Positions 650 to 15,394 of a stretch of 15,799 nt of DNA are shown here, piece after piece. The notes beneath the pieces were generated by a model that ran no database searches, was not told the DNA's origin, and was given only the letters and a program-made list of their open reading frames with translations. The translations under genes and the position numbers were made by a program. The stretch's first letter is position 1; every line of letters begins with the position of its first letter. The stretch comes from Paraspadella gotoi (lineage: Eukaryota; Animalia; Chaetognatha). Where the stretch lies: NCBI GenBank assembly GCA_051294375.1, contig JBJCIZ010000039.1, positions 24,278-40,076 on the forward strand, read 5' to 3'.

Positions 650-3600
650 TGAACCTTCCCTCGGTTATCGTTATTTCTTTTCTGACTTTTCCTCCTCCCA
701 GAAGTCCCTTGATTCTGCTCATCTCTCGGTCGTCTTCGTCGTCGTCCAAATGCCTCCAAGAGGACGAAAAAGAGGAGGAAGAGGACGGTCGCCACCTCCC
801 TTTCTCGATTATCTCGAGCGCCGGGGGGTGCCATCGAGAAATAGGGAGGAATTTCGGGGGGCGGAGTTCGCGATCGAGACCCGCCTCGGCCCCACGGGAC
901 CGTGGCTCCTCGCGTCGCTAACTCAAAGGGCCAAGTTCTCTGCCGGCCAGGACCGCCGCCGCGCCATCATAGTTTTCCAAAGCAATACGCATTTTCTTTG
1001 AGAGAAACGCACTTGTATAAAAAAATCCGCCCCGGATTCGTCTGCATGAGACGAAGATGAGAAATGACGAAGAAAATGAAAGAATGTATGAGTTGAAGTA
1101 ATGAGAGATGAAGGAGCAAGCGAGGATTCTCACCCTTTTAAAGCAACGAGTCTTTGTCCTAATTACGATCCCTCCACAATTCGTAATATAGTATTCTATT
1201 CCTTGTTTAATCCAACCAATACGGATGGGTTTCTTCGGGACTAATTTAAGTATATAATATATTTCATTAAATGATAATATATTAATCAATCTATAAATTT
1301 TACTAGTCTTTTAACGTAACCAAAATGAAACAGACATGTGGGCCCAATCGCGCCAAACAAAACGTAAGACCCGTCGACTCTCGTATCGGAAAGCCAAGAC
1401 GAACAGCTGAATCCCTTAATTAAATATTATTATTATTAAAAACGCATTATTATTTTTTCTTCTTAAGAATCAAATTTAAAATATCACGAGTCGTTTTGTT
1501 GGCAGCCTCATGCTCACGTCCGGTCCTCAGCTTTCGTTTAAAACACTCTTCTTAGATTCATCTTGAAAAGTCAATAATAATGTTAATAAAATTTCGAGTT
1601 TTCCAAGTATGCATTCCTTAATTCAATTAAGTTAATTAATGATGTTAATTAATTAAATTAAAATCATCTATTTTAAAATTCTAACCTCCGACCATGATTC
1701 GGTTTGTTCAAGCGCAAGCGTTTTTCTCGAATTTTAACAAGATCAAAGAATTCGGGAGAGGGTCTCGCAGACTGTGAAAATCGGCGCGATATCATCTGCC
1801 CGTCTGGCAATTTTTTGTCGCAGAATACAAAACGGATTTATGTGTTTTTCCCTCGTAACGTTTTCGATAGGTCTATGTATCAATATAAAAAAATGTTTGT
1901 AACTGAAATAATTATATATGATATTACTATAAATCAGTTTTACCTTGCCGTACAAACTGTTTACGATCGTCTTGTAATGATTCTTTATGGAATGGCGACT
2001 CGGGGCTCGCTTTCTTTTTCGCGTAAAGTAATCCGACAAAAGGGCTTGACGTGTACGTTTCTTATCGTAACGGTATACCGGCACGTTTATATTTTTCTAC
2101 CCACGTAACCCAGTTCTAACGCCAATTTTAAAACCATGTTACATTGATTAACGTAAATTTTCCTTTGCTTCCCACGCAAGTAATAACAATTTACAGGATA
2201 AGAGACGAGATACGAATCCGTACGTTTGCCCAGTCGTAATCGTCGAGGAGACAAGTTGGTTTTCTGTGGAGCGCGGTACCTCTTCTCGCCCGAGGGGGGG
2301 AGTAAACGCTCCAGCCAAATGGCATACTATGTATCGTTCCAAATGATCGCGCACTAAGGCAAATATAGCGTTCGGGACGACCTCGCGCAGCGCTGAGAAT
2401 GAGAAGTCGACAAGACGCGTTTCTAGCTAAGTAAAAATAGTAAAAAATGGCTCCATCGTCAGTGGTTTCACAATTCTCTGTTATATATATCGAACCACGA
2501 GACATTTGAGATTATATTCACTCATATTCGATTGTCTAATGAGCTTAATAATATATTAGTTTGTCCTTGGATCGGCTAAGGCATGAAGGACTTCGAAAAC
2601 GACCTGAAGTATAACACCCAATGTCACACAGTTCGCGATCTCACACGTAAGAGTGGTTACGAGAAATTCGAGACTGTAATTAACCTAGTAATATAGAATC
2701 AAATGAATAAAAAAAAACGCGGAAATATAGTAAGATTGAAATCGACATAGTGATGAATGTTATATAAAATTTAATAAAATTATATTATAGTAGAAATCGG
2801 GTTATATAACAAAGAGATTTCAGGTAATTACATCCTTTGAAACTTTATATTATTATATGCTCACCCTCAATTAGTTCCATGACGGACTCCTCTTGTCTCC
2901 TTCTCTATGCGCTAATTGTCGTCAAACCACATCCACGTTGCCTCAATTATTATACACGAATAGTGAGAAATCGACTCTTCTGATCACACCGGCTTCCAGT
3001 CTGGGCGAGTTGTCTTTTCTCTGCATCGTCCACGGCGTTCTCTGCGCTCCGTTGCTCCCATACTATAACTAAGGGCGCTTAAGATCTCACACTCTTCCGC
3101 CCAGAAATTAGACGCTTTATCACGTCCGTACGTAGAACAACACTACGTCATAACGCTGCGTCGACATTGAACTCATTAGTGTTCACGAAGGTGAATTTGA
3201 GTGGTTTAATTCGGTTCCGGCTTAACAGAGCACCGAAAATAAGGGAATATTCCTACCTATTTGAATAAGAGACAAAAAAATAAATTGAAGAGAGACACTA
3301 TATAGTACTTGCGAGAACATCGAGAGAGGAGGAGTATCACGGCGATCGCAGTCCTGTAAATTATCTCTCGCTCTCGCTAGTTAATAGCTGGGGTGCTTGC
3401 GTTATTGAAAAAAGCGCCCGAATGATATGCAATTGTTCTCAGCGGAGTAACCTATCTCCGAGTTGAATATGACGTGTCAAAACTACGGTTCTCTATAAGG
3501 TTTAAGTATCTTTTCCTATGTATCATTATTACACTTAATCTTGATAAAAAATAATAACACTAGTATTATTACCATCTAGATGCAATTAGGTTAGCTCAAT

Positions 3601-3881
3601 TGTACAACACATGTGCGGCCGCAAACTGGTCATAAATGCACCCAAAGACGGTGATGAGAATACAGTCTTCTTGGCGAATAACTGTTTACTTTCCTTTCCG
3701 TACTTACATAAAATTTTCCCCCAATTGTGAGCATTGATGTTCGTCCGTGATTAATACTGCGATCGCACGAAGGTGAGAGGGAAGTCCGGTGAATGGTCTG
3801 TGCATCGCGCAAGACGGGTCCACGAAAATGCCGAATATGGCATTTTTATTTGTTTGTAAATTTCCATGAAATTTGTCCTTA
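650..3881 (-). CDS. polB: 3' (catalytic) half of the same pPolB, copy A; indel-riddled and multi-exon
   Basis: Fragments in expected order: KMPYSAF (about 3830), motif A HYVDFN..FP (2720-2752), LKLALELGYV (about 2100-2130), motif B KTIVNSLYGK (1944-1973) followed by a gtaaaa donor, IENV, RLNKP.MVG (about 1690-1715), a degenerate motif C region (about 1480-1510) and thumb-like SRIKGLLGGGKVRKEIT (about 670-720). Intron 1042-1133 (gtgaga...gcag). Confidence 0.8.
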
Positions 3882-6120
3882 NNNNNNNNNNNNNNNNNNN
3901 NNNNNNCATTATACTCTCGAGTAGCCATCGACCTCAGGCGATCGCTAATTCTATCTCGAGTGGGCGCGCAGGCAGGTGCCTACAGAAAAAATTACGGGAA
4001 GAGGAATCTTCGCAGGAGAGGCGGAAAGTACGCGCATGCGACCGCCCTGCGGCCCAACGGGACCGTGGTCCTCGCGTCGCTAACTCAAAGGGCCAAGTCT
4101 TCTGCCGGCCGGACCGCCGCCGCCAGCCGTATAGTTTTCACAAAAATAGCATTTCCGTTGAGAGAAACGCCACTTGTATAAAAATCCGCCACCGACGTGA
4201 TTGGCGAGAATGAGGGATGACGTGATGGATGAAGAAAGTAATGAGAATGAAGAGAGAATAGAAGAAAGTGAGAAAGGTCGGAGAAGCGGGATGTCCACCT
4301 TTTAAAGCAACCGAGCTTCTGATCTCTAATTACGATCCCTCACACATTCGTAATATAGTATTCTATCCTTGTTTAATCCAACCAATACGGATGGGTTTCT
4401 TCGGGACAATTTAAGTAATATATATATATTCATTAATGATCAATATATTTAAATCAACTATTAATTTACTAAGCTCTTTAACGTCCAAAATGAACAACAG
4501 AAGTGGGCCCAATCGCGCCAACCAAAACGAAGCCCAGTCGACTCTCGTATTCGGAAAGCCAAGACGAACAGCTAATCCTAATTAATATTATTATTATTAA
4601 AACGATTATTTATTTTTTCTTCTTAAGAATCAAAATTTAAAATATCACCGGTCAGTTTTGTTGGGCAGCCTCATGCTCACGTCCGGTCCTAGCTTCGTTT
4701 AAAACACTCTTCTTTAGATTCTCATTGAAAGTAATAATAATGCTTAATATAAATTTCGAGTTTCTCCAAGTATGCATCCTTATTAATCTAGATTAATTAA
4801 TGAGTTAATTAATCTAATTATAATAATCTCTATTTTAAAAATTCTAACCTCCGCACCATGATTCGGTTTGTTCAAGCGCAAGCGGTTTTTCTCGAATTTT
4901 AAAACAAGATCAAAGAATCGCGGAGAGGTCTCGCAGAACTGTGAAAAATGTGCGCCGTATCACGCCCGTTCTGCATTTTTTGTCGCAAATACAAAACGGG
5001 ATTACTGTGTTTTCCCTCGCTAACGGTTTTCGATGGTCTATGTATCAATATAAAAAATGTTTCGTAACTGAAATAATTATATATGCATATTACTAAACAG
5101 TTTTACCTTGCCGTACAAACTGTTTACGATCGTGCTTGTATATGATTCTTTTAGGAATGGCGACTCTGGGCCCGTTTCTTTTTCACGTAAAGTAATCGAC
5201 AAAAGGGCTTGACGGTACGTTTCTTATCGTAACGGTATATCCGCACGTTTATAATGTTTTTCTACCCACTAACCCAGTTCTAACGCCCAATTTTAAAACC
5301 ATTAATTGATTAACGTAATTTTCCTTGCTTCCCACCAAGTAATACAATTGACAGGATAAGAGCACGAGTTACGAATCCAGTAACGGTTTGCCCAGTCGTA
5401 TCGTCGAGGAAGACAGTTGGTTTTCGTTGGGCGCGAGTCCTCATTCTCGCCCGAGGGGGGGTACGCTCCAAGCTCAGACGTTGCAAATATGATCCTGGGC
5501 AAATAATATGTTGCAGCCATCTAGCTATGAAGCCCACTAGTTCGCCTCCGTAGGGTCCCAATCCTGAGCGTGTACACGACCGTTCTTTCGTCATGGCCCA
5601 ATAATATCGGCTAGCTAGAATACTCGGATTGGTGAAAAAACCCTTCCTTCGGCAGATGGGGTACGCATCGCTTTTACTATCAATATTAAAAAAAAAAAAA
5701 CGCCGGAAATAAGTGTTCCCATGTTGTTATTAGATTACTATATCTTATACTTAAACATAAGAGATTTGCGTAAAATCTTGATAACTTAATGCGTACCTGC
5801 CCTTTCGTCCTCGTAGTCGAAACCCACATTCGCGTCATTGTTCAGCCACGGCGTTACGCGCTCGGAAACACGGGCGCATGGATAATGTCGCCGGCGCATC
5901 GAAATTCACCTTGACGCTCAAGGTATGCGTAGTCAAGAGAATATTTGATATCCAGGGAGGATCCGGCGCTTCGGGCGATCGCGAGCGAAGAATCAGGGAC
6001 CGGAAGATAATAATGAGATTGTCACATCTGGAGGGTTAGAGTCCATTACCTCGTATCAACACATGAATGCGGTCGCAGCACCGAAGAATCCTCTCATTGG
6101 GTATTCTCATTTTGACCCTT
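800..6120 (+). repeat. Imperfect direct duplication: about 800-3881 versus about 3945-6120, either side of a 25-N gap (3882-3906)
   Basis: Shared blocks include cctcgcgtcgctaactcaaagggccaagt, ccaaccaatacggatgggtttcttcgggac and ccatgattcggtttgttcaagcgcaagcg. Differences are mostly indels. Confidence 0.9.
3907..6120 (-). pseudogene. polB: Second, error-rich copy (copy B) of the pPolB 3' half; probably an assembly duplicate
   Basis: About 4060-5470 aligns by eye to about 890-2315 with mostly 1-nt indels. Contains VNSLYGK plus donor at about 5107-5130 and an AMRTP...EGF-like segment at about 5640-5672. Confidence 0.75.
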
Positions 6121-9100
6121 AGCCTCTCCATAGGTTTCCGCGATATATTCCTATACCGGTTTGAAAAGTTCTTTCAAAGTTTTAAATTTGGCGCATTCTA
6201 CGCAAGGGGCCGTGACCACTGGTTCCCGACAACAAACGCCCCCCCTTTTTTCTCTCGATTCCGTAGTCAAATTATCGATCAGAGCCGCGAGGGAGGAAGA
6301 CTGAAACCTTGAGAGGAGAGAGATAACTAACTTAATTTAGTTTTATACTATTTATTTATTAATTTAATAAAACACCTGTAAGTACATTTCACTCTGATTA
6401 GACTAATTTTGGAACATTGACAGGTCAATCCCTCATCTTCCTCTCGATCTCTGACGATCCATTCGGAGAGATCTCCAACTTGCTCGTCCACCTCGTTGGA
6501 CCGGAAAAAGTAATCGTGATCCTTGTTCGCTACGAATTCGAATTCGTCTACGTCGTCGTCGAACTGTTCCTCATCGTCGTCATTATCATCGTCGTCGTCG
6601 TCGTCGTCGTACTCTTTCTCGGCCTTTGTTTTGCAAAAATCGCAGTTAAACCTTGAGAGAGAGGGGGGAGGGGGAAAGATAAGGGGTCGTCGAAACGCGC
6701 CATCGTGCGGAGGAGGAAAAAAAAATCACCTTATGTCGAAGGAGATAAATTTCTTCATCGAAGATTCCGTCAGAATATTGGTGACGGACTTGACGTTAAA
6801 GTCGCTGTTACGATCTTTCAAACCGTGAAAGATTGCTGCGGCGTCGAAATTCATGTTATGAAACAGGAGCAACACTTGCGATCTTACGGTATATTTCGCG
6901 TTGCAAGATCTTTTAATAAGAAGGAAAAAAGAAAAAAGGGACTTGGTGTTTTTTTTGTTTTTTCAAAAGTGAATTTCACTCGCTCGCTAACCTGCACATG
7001 GTTGCCGCTTATAATTCCCAGTACGCCAACAATGATCCAGCACGCGATGGTGGTACTCTCGTCGTTGAGAACCTCGTGACAACAGTCGCAATGAGTGGCT
7101 TCGGTGTGCCTCTTCAACTCTTCGTCGGTCAAAATTGGGGATCCGGAAATAAATGGAGCAGACCGTACAAAAGCTTAGCGTCGTCTCTCAAGGAGGCGAT
7201 GAATAGCTTGGCGCAATTCGGACCGATAAAAGATCTCGGAAGAAAATGGTCTTCGGAGAACTCGCTGTGAACTTTGTAGCAATACGAAAGCGGACATATC
7301 TCGCTGGTAAATTCCAAGGACCGCGCGATTCTCCAACACGGTTTCAAAGCGGTGCAAACTTGACAATTTGTCACGTGTTCAAGATGTAAGTCAGTCTTGA
7401 CCCAAGATAAATGGGATCATCTTCTTCGGTCAAAGGTTGTTGACATCCGGGACGCCGTTCGACCTCTGGCGCCGCTTTGGCATAGGTCTCAAAATCCGCG
7501 TATATCACGTACGGGTGTCGTAACGAGTAATGATGATGTTTAAACTTCATCACGGACCCGGGTTGAGGATATTTGACCACCTGCGTTTGTCGAAGAACGC
7601 AAATTCGAAAATGGACAAAGAAGGTATACTCTCGACTCGTGGAGTAAAGACATCTGAAGGATAGGGGTGTGGGGGAGAGGGTTAAGTGAGAAAGAAGAAA
7701 AAGAGAAGGAAAAGAATAAAAGACACTTGCCTAGGACAAACGTGTTTTGTTCTTTTGTAAGATGAACCTTGTTTTCCGAGAAGACGAGACATAGAGTTAA
7801 TAGTACAAAAGTGGGATGACTTTTTGTTGTATAATTTTAACAAATTTACAACCTTAACGTTCGAATTCAAAGTTCCGTTTCGGTCCGATACGTAAAGGGG
7901 AAAAAAGAATGCTCTTATCTTTCCCCTATCGTTCATCTTGCGCACGTAAGAGTACGCGTTTATCGCGAGCGAGGGGTTCAGGGCTTCGATCTTTTTTAGA
8001 TCCGATATCGAAACGGGGCAACTCTTCGAGAGGTCGCCAAAATTAATCTCTCGCGAGTGCTTGAGATATTTACCCGGCCTCGATTTGGAATCGACTATCT
8101 TCGGATGAAGCCCCGCTAATAGCGAAATCAGTAAACAGTTCTGTTCTCTCGATCTCACGTTCGTAACTGCTTTTTTCCGATTAATGAAATCGGGAGTCTT
8201 AATGAACGAGCCGATGACTTTTTTGGACCGCAGATTGTAAAAGAAAGATGGAAGAATGCGGATAAAAGTCAAATCCGCCTGGCTCACGTTTTGAAATATA
8301 AGAAAGCTTCCTGATAATAAAAAAAAGAGAGAAAATGTAAAATAAAAATATTCGCCAGTAAGTAACCAAAAATGAAAAAGAGAGAAAAAATACCTGATTC
8401 CAATTTGTTTTCAATTTGCAAGGAAAACAGGCCCATGATATGGTCCAAAACCCCATCCAAATCCGTCCCCAGATTGATGAGCTCCGATTTGTGGTCGTAA
8501 TAAAATTGCACGGTTTCATCGTGATCCGGACGAAGGTAGGTGACCAAGATGCAAACGTGAATTTTTACAACCGGAACCCGCTTCAACGATCCCTTGATGA
8601 ATTTTTTTAATTGTTTCTGCAGACGAGAGAGCGCCGTTCTGTAGTCGGCCAGCTCCAAGGTTGGCACGAGTCTGACCGTTTTAACGACATTATGATATTT
8701 GCGGCATCCCCCTGGACTGACGCGATACATGTCCCCATCACCCGCGGAATCGTCATTCTCTTCTTTTTCTTCTTCCTCCGTCAACGCTATCTTTTCCTTG
8801 GTGATCGACTTTGGAACAAAATCGATGACAGAGGGTCGACCCGGTTTGACGCCAACGATCTTGACGTCATCGTCGTCGTCGTCATCATCGTCCGCGACGA
8901 GGGGAGCCTTTTTTCCCGGCGAGTCATCATCGTCCTCTCTTTTCCTTTTCTTTTTCACTCTACCTCCTCCGACCTGAGGTCCTTGTTCCTCCAAAAAAGA
9001 TCGACTGCAACAGGGAAGTTGATCGTCGTCGACAGGAGGAGGGGCGGGAGTGAGGAGAGATGAAGAGAGTCTGTCGGCGCCATCGTCCGTCGTCGTTGTT

Positions 9101-9270
9101 GTTGTTGGCTGCTGCTCCTCCTCCAACAACTTCAAACAGTTTCCCGGCTCGCGAACGAAAGGAATGGGCGAGTAGTCGGGAGAGGAGGAGTCGTAGAACA
9201 AGGAAAGTTCGCTTTCGGTATCTCCGTTACTCGATTCGTCTAACTCTTTGTCATCGTCAAAAGAAGCCAT
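6120..9270 (-). CDS. polB: Protein-primed family B DNA polymerase (Polinton/adintovirus type), 5' exons 9270-8394, 8310-7731, 7653-6992, 6909-6730, 6651-6376, 6307-about 6120; carries frameshifts and a stop as assembled
   Basis: Spliced translation gives ESGSFLIFQNV, GSFIKTPDFINRKKAVTNVRSREQNCLLISLLAGLHP, SHFCTINSMSRLL, CPRCLY-x10-HFRIC, PYVIYADFE (ExoI), SFIGPNCAKLF, ATHCDCC, RVLDHCWRTGNY, CRSCNAKY, LFHNMNFD (ExoII), KFISF and RFQSSSLAALIDNL, in the order typical of Polinton polB. All five introns (68-83 nt) restore the reading frame. Frameshifts near 7400, 7138, 7050 and 7010; in-frame TAG at 6153-6151. Confidence 0.92.
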
Positions 9271-9448
9271 CTGTTTGATTTTAAAAATATTTATTTACAA
9301 TTTTTTCAACAAGTCAAACATCATTTCGCCGTTTAAACAAATTTTATCCGAGTCCATTTCATTAGCGCTCTAAATTATTCTCTAAATGATATTTATAATA
9401 GTCATAAAATTTAGTCAAATTATTTTATTACAGTCGTATAACGATTCT

Positions 9449-9961
9449 CTAATTATGGGTAAAATATAGGCTACATGAGGATATAATATTTTTATTACTA
9501 GACAATTTCTTACTACTAGTAATAATTAATTTTTCAAAAACTTTGATGAGTTGTAGGATTTCATTGTAAGCTAAATCAGTTTCGGAAAATGCCAAAAAGC
9601 AACAGTTTTCAAAGTGTTTAATAAAATGTACATTATCGGGGTCCTGGTGAGATTCCCGTCGGCATTCCTCGACTTGACGAAGGATGAATGGGACTTGTGG
9701 TTCGATTTTGACAAACGTGACTGGAGACGTTCGAAAGAGATCAAATTCCTCCTTGAGGACAGTCAGGTGGTTCATGAGTTGACCCTCGCGCGCCGCCAAT
9801 CTCTCCGAGGAACAGTAGTTTGATTTGGAAACGGCGGAAGGACGGACAACGTCGGTGAAGTATATACACAACGAGTGATATAAACAGTTAATGTAGAAGC
9901 ATAGCTTTTGCAAAGTTCGACAGGATTCAAAAAAATTATTTATTTCCATTGAAAAACCCAT
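9449..9961 (-). CDS. Hypothetical protein, about 170 aa; possibly extended 3' through a short intron (gtaaga...catgtag, about 9470-9512)
   Basis: ATG in an aaaaATG context, 19 nt downstream of the upstream gene's stop; open 513-nt frame; no recognisable domain. Confidence 0.65.
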   Translation of the reverse strand: MGFSMEINNFFESCRTLQKLCFYINCLYHSLCIYFTDVVRPSAVSKSNYCSSERLAAREGQLMNHLTVLKEEFDLFRTSPVTFVKIEPQVPFILRQVEECRRESHQDPDNVHFIKHFENCCFLAFSETDLAYNEILQLIKVFEKLIITSSKKLSSNKNIISSCSLYFTHN

Positions 9962-9980
9962 TTTTCTTTAAAAAATAAAA

Positions 9981-10763
9981 TTAAATAATCATACGATTGT
10001 TTACTAAATTTTCATAGGTTGATTTAAGAAATATGGCGCATCTATGATTGCAAGAACATTGCGGCGGACTACAAGATTCGACGGCGATGTTCATTTGTAC
10101 ATCAGAGTCTCCTAACACCTTTTCTACGCATTGTCGCCATCTGTCAAAATTTTCCCCTAAATTTTCTACGTTAAATTTATGGAAAAATGACCGGTAACTT
10201 AATAAATTGATCAGAAAATCTTCCCCTTCTTCCCAATTGCTAAACTCTATACATTTTAAAATTTTATAACATATTGTATATGTTTCAAAAATATCTCGCA
10301 AAGAATGTAAATATTGTCCTATTTCACAAATTAAATTACGAATTCCATTCTTACTGTGCTGATTACCTTCGACGTGTAAATATTCGATCGAAAAAGACAT
10401 AAATTTTAAAGGATTTAGTACTAATTTTTGAAAGAAGGAAAAGTTAGTTTTTAGCTGGGCGATGTCCGGATTTGGAAGCTCGTGGTCAAAAAGAAAAAGT
10501 TTTTGTCTGTATACGCTCAAGTCCGGATCGTTCTCGTCATCTACCGCGGAAGCTATTTCTTCCCGACTCGCGTGAAACCTTGAGACAATGATGGAGATGG
10601 TGTGGTCCACCACTCGGTATTCGCGATGAAACAGATGGTGAGTTTCCATCAAGACTCGAAGCATGAACGTCAGCTTCTGCAAAAAACTTGATCGATGGGC
10701 CACGTCAACCACCGTTGGAATGGGATCTACCGCAAATTGTTCCATCTCCATCATCTCCGCCAT
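9981..10763 (-). CDS. Hypothetical protein, about 260 aa (start at MAEMMEME), with a C-terminal Cys/His cluster CSPPQCSCNHRC
   Basis: 783-nt open frame, ATG in an atcATGG context, co-oriented and tightly packed with its neighbours. Confidence 0.75.
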   Translation of the reverse strand: MAEMMEMEQFAVDPIPTVVDVAHRSSFLQKLTFMLRVLMETHHLFHREYRVVDHTISIIVSRFHASREEIASAVDDENDPDLSVYRQKLFLFDHELPNPDIAQLKTNFSFFQKLVLNPLKFMSFSIEYLHVEGNQHSKNGIRNLICEIGQYLHSLRDIFETYTICYKILKCIEFSNWEEGEDFLINLLSYRSFFHKFNVENLGENFDRWRQCVEKVLGDSDVQMNIAVESCSPPQCSCNHRCAIFLKSTYENLVNNRMII

Positions 10764-10793
10764 GATTATCTTTTTCTCAAAAAACACAATTTA

Positions 10794-10843
10794 TACGGAA
10801 AGATTAAACCACAAATTTCTACGGAAAGATTAAACCACAAATT
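10794..10843. repeat. Two exact copies of tacggaaagattaaaccacaaatt (24 nt, period 26) in a short intergenic spacer
   Basis: Copies at 10794-10817 and 10820-10843, about 30 nt upstream of the ATG at 10763. Confidence 0.9.
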
Positions 10844-10861
10844 AAAAAATTAAAGATTTCT

Positions 10862-12283
10862 CTAATTGTCTTTTTTAGCCCTCTTATTCATGCCCACGTC
10901 GTAATCGTCCTCGTCATCGTCGTCCTCCTCGTCGCGACAATGAGACTTCTCCTCTTTCGCGAAATCCATCAGCGACTGGAATTCCACGAGGGAAAGATAA
11001 ACGGTTCCCAAATTTAACATCACCGTTTTGGTTTGACCAGTTGTGGTGGTAAAATGGTACAAACTTTAAAAAAAATATATATAATTTATATTAATTTTTT
11101 TATCAAGATAAAGTGATAAATGGCAAAAATAAAAAAAGTACCGCAATTGAACGGTGGTCCTGGCAAGCGGAGACACTTGATTCGGCGCTTTCCAATAAGA
11201 AAGCGCCAGCGATAGCGAACGAGAGATAAAGATCCGATCACCGGTTACATTATTGTACCCAGATGTCTCGCAAGTACTATATATATATAAATATATTTAT
11301 TTTATAAATTTTCCTTTTTCTAAAACCGCAAAATAAAAAATTCACCTCTGGAAATGGTCAATGTCGGTACGTAGGTTGTCTACGTACCGACGGTATAAAG
11401 CATCTAGTTCTTCGAAGGTAAGCTTGAGCTTATAGATGACCGGAGAAGTACCCGACGATGACGAAGAGATCGAGCCGGAACCGCCGGAAGAAGAGTCGTA
11501 TTTCTCCTTCTTTATGACAACGTGGAGCGGTTTACGGACGATTACAGCGTAAGGAGACAAGGGAATCGTCATAGAACTAATTGAGAGGCAAAAAAAAAAG
11601 TAAGAAAATTAATTCATTCGTTTATTCATTCATTCATTCATTCATTCATTCATTCATTCATTCATTAATAATCTTACGGGATTGTTTTGACTTGATTGTA
11701 CTTGTCGTTTTCAGCCTTAATGGCTTCCAAGGACAAACTAATTAAAAAAATACATAAATATGTAATATATTAAATGTCTCACGATGTCTCATGTAATAAG
11801 AAGATGGAAAATGAATGGACAATTTTACTATTTTTACTTACTGAACTTCTTCATTTCTACCACCGCGGTTCCCTCCACCCCGCTTCGTGCCCAGAAATTG
11901 TGCCATTCTCCTTCTTTTTACCGATGTTCGGCGCAAGTGTTTCACCTTTTTTCTACAAAAAACGAAAAAATTAAATTAAGTTCCACGTATGTATAATACA
12001 TTCAAAATTACCTTAAATTTAAATTATTTTTTTTTAAAGAATTAATGACATCGATTAATTGAACGAGTTCAACGTCTCTCGTCGTACGATTAATTTTATT
12101 TTCTTTGCATCCTTGGCAAAGGGTAAATAAATTAGTCTTACAAGTTGGGCATACAGCATTATCTTTATCATTAATTAATAATTTTTCGTAGCAAAAAATA
12201 CAAGCTGGGTGGCCTTCCCGACAAACGATGGTGCGCCGTTGGGCAGAAAAATCTTCGTAACAGACTGGACAACGCATAGACAT
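10862..12283 (-). CDS. Six-exon RING-HC finger protein (putative E3 ligase), 336 aa, with a basic/RGG segment, possible PC4-like repeats, acidic tail and NLS; exons 12283-12012, 11952-11842, 11737-11678, 11576-11346, 11276-11142, 11063-10862
   Basis: CPVC-x12-CREGHPACIFC-x13-CPTC is a C3HC4 pattern. Five GT-AG introns join into a stop-free 1011-nt CDS. An acceptor (ttttacag) just upstream of caacATG suggests a 5' UTR intron. Confidence 0.85.
11624..11666. repeat. (ATTC)n microsatellite, about 10 units, inside intron 3 of the RING gene
   Basis: Directly visible attcattcattc run. Confidence 0.95.
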
Positions 12284-12539
12284 GTTGTCGGGTCTGTAAA
12301 ATAGGTGAGAAAAAAGGTCTTATTTATACCCATATTGAAAGCACTTGAAATGTCAAAAGTCAAGAATAAGTGGCTCGGTTTCGTGATTACACAGTGTGTA
12401 TTTTTTATTTTTTTCCCTCTATCTCTGTATTATCAAAAAAATCTTTGGCTACGTTCCGCCGGCCTTATCGATTCTTTTTAAAGAAATCAGTCTCGATCCA
12501 AAATCGACGTTGTAATAACATTGTAATAACGGCTAAAAA
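12284..12539. promoter_or_regulatory. Probable bidirectional promoter region between the divergent RING and mucin-like genes
   Basis: About 255-nt spacer between head-to-head start codons; contains an Inr-like atcagt (12486-12491) and a ttgtaataac tandem pair (12509-12530). Confidence 0.4.
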
Positions 12540-13750
12540 ATGAAAACTGTTCTTACAATCTCGTTAATCTTTTACTTACTGTTAAAAGATGTTTTTTGCG
12601 TGGTGGAACCCGATCAGGTAAACTCGTTAGTAATACTTTATTTTATTAAAATATTGTTTAAATAATAAAAAAAACCCATTAAGATACTTACGGTAAAACC
12701 GAAAGGGTCAACGGTGAAGAAAACGCGTCCCCCTTTCTGGTGGACGAAAAAGTCAACGACGATAGTTAGGACGACGACGGTTTCCATCACGACACCATCA
12801 TGGAACACGGATCGAACGATATCGGAAATAAGTTCAACCACGAGCGAGATGAAAACGAAAGAAGTGAGCGAGACGAACAAAATGACGATGACGACCAAGG
12901 AGGTAACTGCAACGACCCAAGGGCGAATGGAGACGACTGGGCATTGGCGAACGACCCATGGGCGAGTTGAGACGACTGAGGATTGGCGAACAACCGGAGG
13001 GAATACGGGGGAGGTGATGGAAACAACGAGTGGCTCAACAAAGACGGAAGTAAATTACACAACGGGTAGGAGAGTAGACGAAGAGACGACGACGACCGAT
13101 GGAAGCGATGATAGAACCACCCACCACCATAAAACCGCTGGAACCAACGAAACGACCAAAATTGATGAAACAAAAAGCACGAGCGGCAAAGTGTTAAGTT
13201 CCACAGAGTTAACTTGGACAACGATGATGAAAACGAGGATAACAAATGATGATGGAATTCATACTACTAATATGATGGAACAAAATNNNNNNNNNNAAAA
13301 TATGAGAAGAAAGAGGGAGAAGATCCTGATTCGGGCGAAGAAGTGGAATTCGATGGCGAAGCGACGCAAAAAACCTTCGCATCTCTGTTGAAAAAAAGAA
13401 AAGAAATTAAGGAGAATTATAAACTTACCTTTCTGGAAAGTAAAAATAATAAAGGTTTTTAGAATTTGGTGATACCGTTGTCGTCGTCTTCTTCCGACGA
13501 AGACAATTATCACGAAGAAACTACGTTTATAGAACTTCCTGAGGAAAACCCCGCTTCATTAAAAACATTTGGAAAGATTGATAAAAAAGAAACCAAAATT
13601 GAAATGACGTACGAAACTGACGAAAATAAAAGAAGAGAAACTAATGAAAGCGAAAGTCAACAGAATATGGTAAAACTATCTAGCATAGTAATTCCAAACA
13701 TTCCATTCGTCTTAAAAAATCCAAACGCGATGCCTGACTTATTTGAATAA
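12540..13750 (+). CDS. Secreted or membrane Thr-rich mucin-like glycoprotein; exon 1 12540-12617, exon 2 from 12684, interrupted by an N gap (13287-13296), with an acidic C-terminal region
   Basis: Exon 1 MKTVLTISLIFYLLLKDVFCVVEPDQ resembles a signal peptide. The phase-0 intron 12618-12683 (gtaaac...ttaag) joins in frame to the Thr-rich ORF. After the gap, KYEKKEGEDPDSGEEVEFDGE... continues in the frame of ORF 13466-13750 across one TAG (13460-13462). AATAAA signals lie at 13747-13758. Confidence 0.7.
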
Positions 13751-13874: not shown

Positions 13875-14170
13875 ACGTAAAGTGGTTCGACGAGAAAGAG
13901 CACACCTGGTGGTTTCGCGCGGCTAAAAAAGTGTTACGTCAGCATTTTTTTACGTCAGAATTTTTTCTGACAGTCAGCCAAACAGTCAGCCAGACAGTCA
14001 GCCAGACAAAAAAAGATAAGAACGTCTAGTTGAATCGATTCGTGGAAACGAAAGTGCAGCTGGTGGTTTCACAGAGTGATAATCACCATTACGTCACCAT
14101 TCTTTCTGGCCATCTTGATAAAGCGATAAGTTTTTCGATTTCGAGCGCCGCGAATCTTTATCTTGATCGG
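13875..14170. promoter_or_regulatory. Motif-dense enhancer/origin-like block
   Basis: TTACGTCA x3 (13934, 13950, 14088), CAGTCAGCCA(A/G)A x3 (13971-14006), duplicated gaaag-gca-ctggtggtttc (13894-13916, 14050-14070) and clustered GATAA sites. Confidence 0.45.
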
Positions 14171-14339
14171 CCAAAAGGTGTAGTAGTATATCTCTAATTT
14201 GATCTTAAATGTTTTTTTTGATTGATTAATCGACTGATTAATTAATTATTTATTAATTAATTTACTAATTAATTAACTGATTATTTAATACATCTTGCAA
14301 TTACATTTATTATGAAAAGAAAAAGAATCAATTAGTGAA

Positions 14340-14822
14340 ACAGGTTTTTTGTTTTTTTTTCTATTTAAACTCATTTCCACTCAAACGATTGCATCAAAAC
14401 CTAATTTCCAGCATAATCACACACTTTCCTACCCACATACAAAATTTCAGGTCAATCGCACTATCCACTCTTGAGTAATTGTTCAAATACTGAAATATAT
14501 TTTTTTGTTTTTTTCCATTTAAACTCATTTTAACTCAGAAGATTCCATCCAAACTTCATGTGCAGCTCATTCACACACTTCCCTACCCACACATATAATT
14601 TCATTCCAATCCATCCATCTCATCACGAGTAATTAGACTTTTTTTCTAAAGTGGGACGGACGGACAGAGAGACAGACGGACAGACAGACAGATGGACGGA
14701 CATCGTTTTTTTTATATTCTGACATGATATATGTGGTTGACCGACAATATTGAGGGGGCAGACTGATGGACCGAAAAAGTGAATTATTGATTTGGGATCT
14801 GCGTATAAGCAGATCCGACTAA
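14340..14822 (-). mobile_element. DINE-1/Helentron-like non-autonomous element (HINE), 3'-truncated, with about 160-bp internal tandem repeats
   Basis: On the minus strand: T-run, gtcggatctgc...gcagatcc hairpin, core, then a GTCY microsatellite (14655-14702). Two diverged repeat units at about 14345-14480 and 14500-14635. Confidence 0.7.
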
Positions 14823-14944
14823 AAACCTCTGGCTTTTTTTGTCAGAGCTTAGTCATATTTATATGGGTATTTGTTAAAATTAGTTAAAATATTTTTGATA
14901 ATAAACATTATATTTTTATTTATTAAACTTTTGCTTCATTTCAG

Positions 14945-14988
14945 ATTGGCAAGCATGAATTGGGAGAAACATATATCTAATGAAAAAG
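14945..14988 (+). other. Isolated 44-nt exon-like segment (LASMNWEKHISNEK), possibly host-derived
   Basis: Flanked by ttttgcttcatttcag and AAG|gtaaac in AT-rich DNA; no partner exons identified. Confidence 0.25.
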
Positions 14989-15171
14989 GTAAACATTTAG
15001 GAATTTGTTAAAAGAACCAGTTGTGTCAAACAATGTCATATATTGTTATTTAAATTTTCAAAATTAACTCATCATTTAATAATGAATATTTGTTACAAAA
15101 TAACAATTTTAATTTCTCTACTTTACTTAAGTATATATTTAAGTACAGACTCCAATGCAATAATACTTTTT

Positions 15172-15394
15172 GGTCGGATTTGCTCATCAGCAGATCCCGC
15201 TTCTATAATTCACTTTGTCAGTCCATCGGTCCGCCATCTCAATATTGTCAGGAAACCACATATATCATGTCAGAATATCGAATTATGATATATTATGCAA
15301 AAAAAAAGATGTCCGTCCATCCGTCTGGCTGTCTGTCTGTCTGTCTGATAAAGATCATGGGCAGATCCGACATTGTTTGGTCAAACTTGTTTTT
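15172..15394 (+). mobile_element. Short, apparently complete DINE-1/Helentron-like HINE of the same family
   Basis: T-run, 5' subterminal repeat gtcggatttgc with partial inverted repeat gcagatccc, core matching 14710-14822 in reverse, GTCY microsatellite (15311-15348), 3' subterminal repeat gcagatccgac (15361-15371), gtttggtcaaac palindrome-like stem, then a T-run. Confidence 0.75.

Follow-up and report, generated by a model that had tools for sequence, protein, structure and literature searches.

How does a DNA polymerase gene of viral type come to be split by a series of short introns in an animal genome? The question is raised by a stretch of 15,799 nucleotides (nt) from the chaetognath Paraspadella gotoi (contig JBJCIZ010000039.1, positions 24,278 to 40,076), called the window below, which carries a family B DNA polymerase gene (polB) beside four compact genes. 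We consider it probable that polB and these neighbours make up an arm of a Polinton-like element that is integrated, nuclear, spliced by its host and gaining introns independently of its relatives. The window was translated in six frames, and polB and the intron-bearing genes next to it were resolved as follows.

8394..9270, minus strand: polB exon 1, an acidic N-terminal extension and then a conserved region up to ESG
8311..8393, minus strand: polB intron 1, 83 nt, phase 1, GT-AG, between ESG and S
7731..8310, minus strand: polB exon 2, which matches 1100 proteins at E<=1e-3, the best of them at 1.6e-18
7654..7730, minus strand: polB intron 2, 77 nt, phase 2, GC-AG, between CPR and CL
6992..7653, minus strand: polB exon 3, with ExoI YADFE, a clade-specific Cys insert and the start of the endonuclease VII domain; contains frame breaks
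6910..6991, minus strand: polB intron 3, 82 nt, phase 2, between CR and SCN inside the CxxCN of endonuclease VII
6730..6909, minus strand: polB exon 4, ExoII region
6652..6729, minus strand: polB intron 4, 78 nt, phase 2; its retention gives a stop codon at the donor
6376..6651, minus strand: polB exon 5, with a CxxC-acidic-CxC insert that by eye is like an insert of the relative P0156
6308..6375, minus strand: polB intron 5, 68 nt, phase 2, between YR and F
5494..6307, minus strand: middle part of polB, noisy below about 6150
10862..12283, minus strand: RING-finger gene, six exons and five phase-2 introns, 336 amino acids (aa), zf-RING_4 at E 3.6e-5
12011-11953, 11841-11738, 11677-11577, 11345-11277 and 11141-11064, minus strand: the RING introns, all phase 2
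12541..13750, plus strand: mucin-like gene, with a hydrophobic N-terminus, a Thr-rich repeat and a 10-N gap; 3' part not resolved
12618-12683, plus strand: intron of the mucin-like gene, phase 0

In total, 12 introns were resolved over the polB, RING and mucin-like genes. They are 59-104 nt long, eleven with GT-AG and one with GC-AG ends, and removal restores the reading frame in all 12 cases. An earlier sequence-only reading had listed eleven of them (five in polB, five in the RING gene and one in the mucin-like gene), and all eleven were located at the DNA level with the frame restored. It had also expected more introns in the 3' half of polB, which the window carries in two copies. There, we resolved one, the twelfth, downstream of polymerase motif B and present in both copies (5106-5038 and 1943-1873); three further AT-rich gaps, again in both copies, are intron-like only, with boundaries that are not readable.

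Donor agreement with the textbook consensus is 6.8 of 9 positions, compared with 4.2 at 297 background GT sites, and the acceptors have pyrimidines at 12.7 of 17 positions, compared with 8.1 at 296 background AG sites. None of 100,000 random draws equalled the donor or acceptor values, a test that is optimistic because the splice sites were picked among in-frame candidates. The segments thus show the GT/GC-AG ends, pyrimidine-rich 3' end and frame restoration of major-spliceosome introns. Nine of the 12 are in phase 2 (P=0.004 under equal phases, 2e-4 under a phase-2 share of 23%), and the first intron codon is a stop in five of these nine. An in-frame stop was found inside 11 introns and the twelfth shifts the frame, so that retention of any of the 12 leads to a premature stop. 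When polB was compared with a profile of 26 homologues, the profile was continuous across introns 2 (317 to 316) and 3 (491 to 492) and fitted more loosely across intron 1 (145 to 172); introns 4 and 5, on either side of an insert specific to the lineage, have weak homology support (E 0.30 downstream). The six joined exons of the RING gene make 1011 nt without an internal stop. These results suggest that the 12 segments are likely removed by host splicing. An introner origin was also considered and found unsupported: pairwise local scores among the 12 introns ran from 19 to at most 31 and came from short low-complexity ends, and no introner-type family of similar introns was evident among them.

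Alternatively, the segments might not be spliced at all, being insertions within a decaying element or sites that mimic splice signals by chance in a noisy assembly. The assembly is indeed noisy and polB has frame breaks, the splicing is read from DNA, and gene-modelling software has been reported to call insertions in degraded Mavericks 'introns' (Barreat and Katzourakis, PMC8097293). However, five successive gaps in the RING gene restore one open frame, two polB gaps are exactly continuous in the profile, and the splice sites match the consensus. Contigs of the sequencing runs X5 and X6 over 6332-8889 or 6623-8889 showed about 2% substitutions, with no intron-sized gap listed. We consider this explanation very improbable.

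The left 6 kb of the window, which the sequence-only reading had taken at face value, are mis-assembled. The segments concerned are the following.

810..2335, minus strand: copy A of the polB 3' half, a duplicate that bears the mark of read error, with motif B near 1967 and an intron at 1943-1873
3952..5494, minus strand: copy A' of the polB 3' half, with motif B near 5130 and a phase-0 intron at 5106-5038
2302..3637, plus strand: noisy inverted copy of RING gene positions 11945-11012 (score 615, compared with 415-469 for shuffles)
3600..3881, minus strand: displaced polB piece, from a contig of run X4 compared by eye

The duplicates 810-2335 and 3952-5494 are 85% identical, with 157 gap events (140 of a single base) and 29 mismatches. 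This gap-heavy and mismatch-poor pattern points to read error, not divergence, and a genuine tandem duplication of the polB 3' half was rejected on this ground. The inverted RING copy at 2302-3637 is likely an assembly artefact. By eye, the X4 contig passes from 6109 into sequence matching 3841-3870, which makes 3600-3881 a displaced piece of polB. Most likely, the element holds a single polB of about 5.6 kb.

The window stretch was present in 9 of 11 listed sequencing runs, none of them recorded as RNA. Relative to the window, contigs from four runs carry about 2% substitutions together with numerous short indels, and the frame breaks of the window can therefore not be read as real decay. In the polB 5' half these breaks lie near 7375, 7135 and 7055-7010, followed by a stop near 6150. 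Run X6 had been guessed to be RNA; this was dropped, as its tables are nearly identical to those of the DNA run X5 and its contigs are unspliced, and it was not counted as independent of X5. Minor variants at about 4-16% of depth were seen in runs X1 and X4, a hint of several copies or of pooled individuals. A 325-nt duplication (7319-7643) was found as a minor variant at about 8% in X1 and X4 contigs, a shorter form at 9033-9085 occurred in contigs of all four runs, and RING intron 2 has a polymorphic 10-nt difference at 11774 among the run contigs.

To which family does the polymerase belong? The 1100 proteins matched with exon 2 as the query are about 35% identical to it, and named homologues came from Parasteatoda (spider) and Nilaparvata (planthopper). 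Among 18 homologues scanned, four had DNA_pol_B_2 (PF03175) and six had Endonuclease_7. ExoI and motif B were both found in the window polB. These findings support the view, put forward earlier from the sequence, that the window polymerase is a protein-primed family B polymerase of Polinton/adintovirus type. It has in common with Polintons, including Beta-class adintoviruses (Starrett et al., PMC8502044), a protein-primed polB of the family that carries endonuclease VII and scores weakly against PF03175. The window differs from Polintons and adintoviruses in the splitting of polB by six or more introns, in its Cys-rich inserts (as many as three) and in its RING and mucin-like neighbours. The polB of Beta-class adintoviruses is marked by an N-terminal OTU-like domain and by divergence from the PF03175 type; we tentatively assign the window polB to this Beta class (group 1).

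We constructed phylogenetic trees of the polymerase. In a 64-row FastTree tree the window polB groups with unnamed metagenomic proteins from ENA/JGI (Shimodaira-Hasegawa support 99). In a 25-row IQ-TREE tree, built on 551 core columns with inserts removed, the grouping with nine clade rows has a Shimodaira-Hasegawa approximate likelihood ratio (SH-aLRT) of 90.1 and an ultrafast bootstrap (UFBoot) of 96. The Cys-rich stretch after YADFE is 68 aa long in the window and 64-69 aa in eight clade rows, compared with 13-38 aa in 15 outgroups, and the relative P0156 has two further Cys-rich inserts that by eye resemble those of the window. Together, the trees and the insert support placing the window polB in a divergent lineage with nine metagenomic polB clusters, consistent with the divergence seen in the sequence-only reading. 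The grouping of nine clusters sharing the Cys-rich insert is new in the present analysis.

Two ordinary Polintons, L001 and L006, with a single open reading frame (ORF) for a polB of the same family as the window's, were fetched as controls. By Pfam, L001 has an A32 ATPase, rve and a double jelly-roll capsid; L006 is similar, its gene labels being our own reading of its ORFs. The integrase ORF of L001 starts with a domain resembling phospholipase A2. Scans of IMG/VR and GTDB uncovered only the conventional elements L001-L006, and no DNA of the window clade or of the 260-aa ORF described below. A gap in L002 was rejected as an intron, since it is an in-frame acidic insert. Exon 2, used as the query of a word-based search restricted to longer proteins, gave no match.

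The polB relatives appear to be split as well. Intron-like breaks were found in eight of the nine clade clusters (P0040 is ambiguous), and the longest member in any of the nine is 846 aa or less. The homology ends in Arg in 4 of 8 insert-bearing representatives, compared with 4 of 125 other short matches (p=3.6e-4); a phase-2 donor, with AG before GT(A/G)A, would produce such a terminal Arg. These ends are identical within clusters: in 15 of the 15 members listed from a cluster of 20, and in 10/10, 5/5 and 2/2 of those listed in other clusters. P0197 and P0206 have 25 extra residues with intron-like ends that are missing from their sister P0040, and 12 of 15 members listed in their cluster have one common end. 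A single DNA string accounts for both P0156 and P0157 across 25 codons, and its third frame regains the family motif after a CAG; the intron implied is about 83 nt long. The sequences of P0002 and P0019 end in tails without homology. Because clade proteins end at such fixed intron-like points, ORF-based screens truncate them, and the suspicion that the lineage is missed by these screens is thereby supported.

The positions of the breaks bear on whether the introns were inherited or gained. Window intron 1 is read through in one ORF by seven clade rows and intron 2 by nine, P0156 reads through window introns 3 and 4, and P0036 and P0052 have one break site in common. Intron positions thus seem mostly not to be common to the window and its relatives, from which we infer independent gains. 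Breaks fall at profile positions 469-503 in six of the nine clusters and at 515 in a seventh, within the endonuclease VII domain or directly behind it, and window intron 3 (profile 491) splits the same domain. Ascertainment through exon 2 and shared ancestry may contribute to this clustering.

Is the element a Polinton? Beside polB lie the RING gene, the mucin-like gene and two intronless orphans, and a candidate end follows on the right.

9449..9958, minus strand: intronless ORF, 169 aa, matches no family
9981..10763, minus strand: intronless ORF, 260 aa, neither family nor relative found
13934..14195: candidate right end, with three TTACGTCA sites, then GTAGTAGTA at 14180-14188, then an AT-rich flank bearing repeats

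Searches of the Atlas, PDB, Pfam and PHROG with the two orphans returned nothing usable. The predicted fold of the 260-aa ORF is helical and of low confidence (predicted local distance difference test, pLDDT, 40), and that of RING exon 4 reached pLDDT 58; both were too poor for a fold search. The C-terminal half of the RING protein (exons 4-6, 11576-10862, minus strand) looks like two beta-rich PC4-like units, a resemblance that was not supported by Pfam, by the Atlas, by PDB or by a single-sequence fold. A 26-bp tandem repeat (2.5 copies, 10781-10843) lies directly upstream of the 260-aa ORF, beside a minus-strand TATAAA box.

The sequence-only reading had taken the region for an endogenous double-stranded DNA virus. 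A complete virus was not confirmed: integrase, ATPase, protease, capsid and a terminal inverted repeat were not found within the window. No match within the window was obtained for the rve integrase, and the left part of the element appears to lie beyond it; the same was true of the A32/FtsK packaging ATPase and the adenain-like protease, and of the major and minor jelly-roll capsid genes (best E 0.81). A protease-like tblastn match at 3845-3735 (E 0.12), inside the displaced polB piece, was rejected as chance. With no hallmark besides polB and no terminal repeats in the window, Polinton membership is not established. Core genes are typically intronless (PMC8097293), and here six polB introns were resolved. 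The element likely works like a Polinton and is here called Polinton-like.

On the left, GC-rich, acidic, coding-like minus-strand sequence at 1-111 and 501-810 runs off the end of the window, which suggests that the element continues past it. The right end of the element is possibly near 14185, at the candidate listed above. The AT-rich flank beyond holds a 154-bp tandem pair (14346-14634), a long imperfect inverted repeat with GACA-type ends (14665-14825 / 15167-15347) resembling a miniature inverted-repeat transposable element, and a short plus-strand stretch bounded by TTTCAG and GTAAAC (14940-15000), possibly a host exon.

Several observations weigh against our reading of the window as the arm of a host-spliced Polinton-like element. 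The RING, mucin-like and two orphan genes are not standard Polinton genes. Nine hallmark proteins of L001 and L006 (integrase, ATPase, protease, major and minor capsid) reached a best E of 0.12 against the window, and no long inverted pair bounding the element was found in the window, which can hold one end only. Motifs A and C are illegible in both noisy copies of the polB 3' half. An exon-2-only FastTree tree placed the window beside P0063 (0.83), outside the clade, and the branch leading to the window is long (1.3-1.5). Splicing was deduced from genomic sequence, and the introns of the relatives from protein ends. Proteins of at least 1100 aa were found in 0 of 8 clade matches compared with 16 of 142 others, so that the shortness of the clade proteins is not significant (p=0.6). 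Pooled individuals could account for the minor variants in X1 and X4.

The missing hallmarks allow a second explanation, in which the window is a segment of a larger or different nucleus-replicating double-stranded DNA virus that acquired a Polinton polB, has its own RING and mucin-like accessories and lacks an integrase and a Polinton capsid. RING E3 and mucin-like glycoprotein genes are reminiscent of large nuclear DNA viruses. In about 13 kb, polB is the only Polinton hallmark gene, contigs of four clade clusters reach no more than 7-8 kb, and intron-rich nuclear viruses exist, namely mirusviruses (PMC12768974). However, the window polB sits within the Polinton family in the trees, short contigs are usual in metagenomes, and the left end is gapped with coding-like GC-rich sequence continuing, so that the missing genes may lie outside. 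We regard this explanation as unlikely.

A third explanation is a domesticated or long-resident host locus, in which a captured polB and its neighbours gained introns as host genes do and are no longer mobile. The intron density is host-like, the right flank resembles host DNA, and neither terminal repeats nor virion genes were found within the window. However, the five genes are tightly packed with short spacers, the relatives in many assemblies break at other positions, unlike orthologues, and two runs show low-frequency variants that may reflect several copies. Domestication is in our view distinctly unlikely.

We compared the window with known systems to assess how unusual a split polB is. 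Intact vertebrate Mavericks have no introns (PMC8097293), and a term search of the main text of Starrett et al. (PMC8502044) found no mention of spliced adintovirus genes. In nematode Mavericks, core genes are intronless and cargo is spliced (Widen et al., 10.1101/2022.07.12.499685); they resemble the window in having spliced accessory genes in a Maverick-type element, whereas in the window the polymerase itself is split. Dinoflagellate polinton-like viruses carry introners, about 25% of them in coding regions (Gozashti et al., PMC12166617), and thus share with the window spliceosomal introns that lie partly in coding regions. Theirs are recent copies of host introners, whereas the window introns have no evident repeat family, and they are a partial precedent for the window. 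Cryptophyte elements have group I introns (PMC12220804). Mirusviruses resemble the window in that viral genes are interrupted by short GT-AG introns, about 80 nt long (PMC12768974). However, they belong to an unrelated phylum, and their introns, some of which encode endonucleases, are enriched in genes for morphogenesis. The introns of the window, by contrast, split the polymerase and are too short to hold a coding sequence. Our literature search, with most subscription journals and supplements outside its reach, did not find an intron-rich polB lineage like that of the window.

How might a host-spliced Polinton-like element accumulate such introns? Transcription of the element's genes would take place in the host nucleus, where the host spliceosome would remove the introns, and the lineage would keep gaining short introns, independently in each sub-lineage. 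Gains in phase 2 would be best tolerated, as the donor GT(A/G)A supplies an in-frame stop; unspliced RNA would then lead to nonsense-mediated decay (NMD) or to a truncated protein only, and not to a poisoned polymerase. A phase-2 donor-stop rule with an NMD model has been stated for Drosophila by Farlow et al. (PMC2809761). Every gain would act as a ratchet binding the element tighter to the nucleus, as has been argued for mirusvirus introns, which tie the virus to the nucleus (PMC12768974). Integrase, capsid and packaging genes are predicted beyond the left end of the window.

A bolder proposal is that the window represents a family of DNA viruses not yet described, intron-rich and bound to the nucleus, with zinc-binding polB inserts, a non-Polinton accessory set and introns gained repeatedly in endonuclease VII, most of them in phase 2 with a donor stop, in which splicing might be an on-switch for the nuclease-polymerase or the nuclease might drive intron gain. 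We offer this tentatively and think it rather unlikely as a whole.

The Polinton survey of Jeong et al. (PMC10748475) required a polB ORF of at least 900 aa. Surveys that filter on long polB ORFs cannot see a lineage whose genes are split, and one such overlooked lineage would surface as truncated proteins recurring in public assemblies. Its introns would offer a compact natural experiment on intron gain, with many independent gains, the phase-2 skew predicted by NMD and an apparent hot spot in the nuclease domain. They would also place the gene expression of the lineage in the nucleus.

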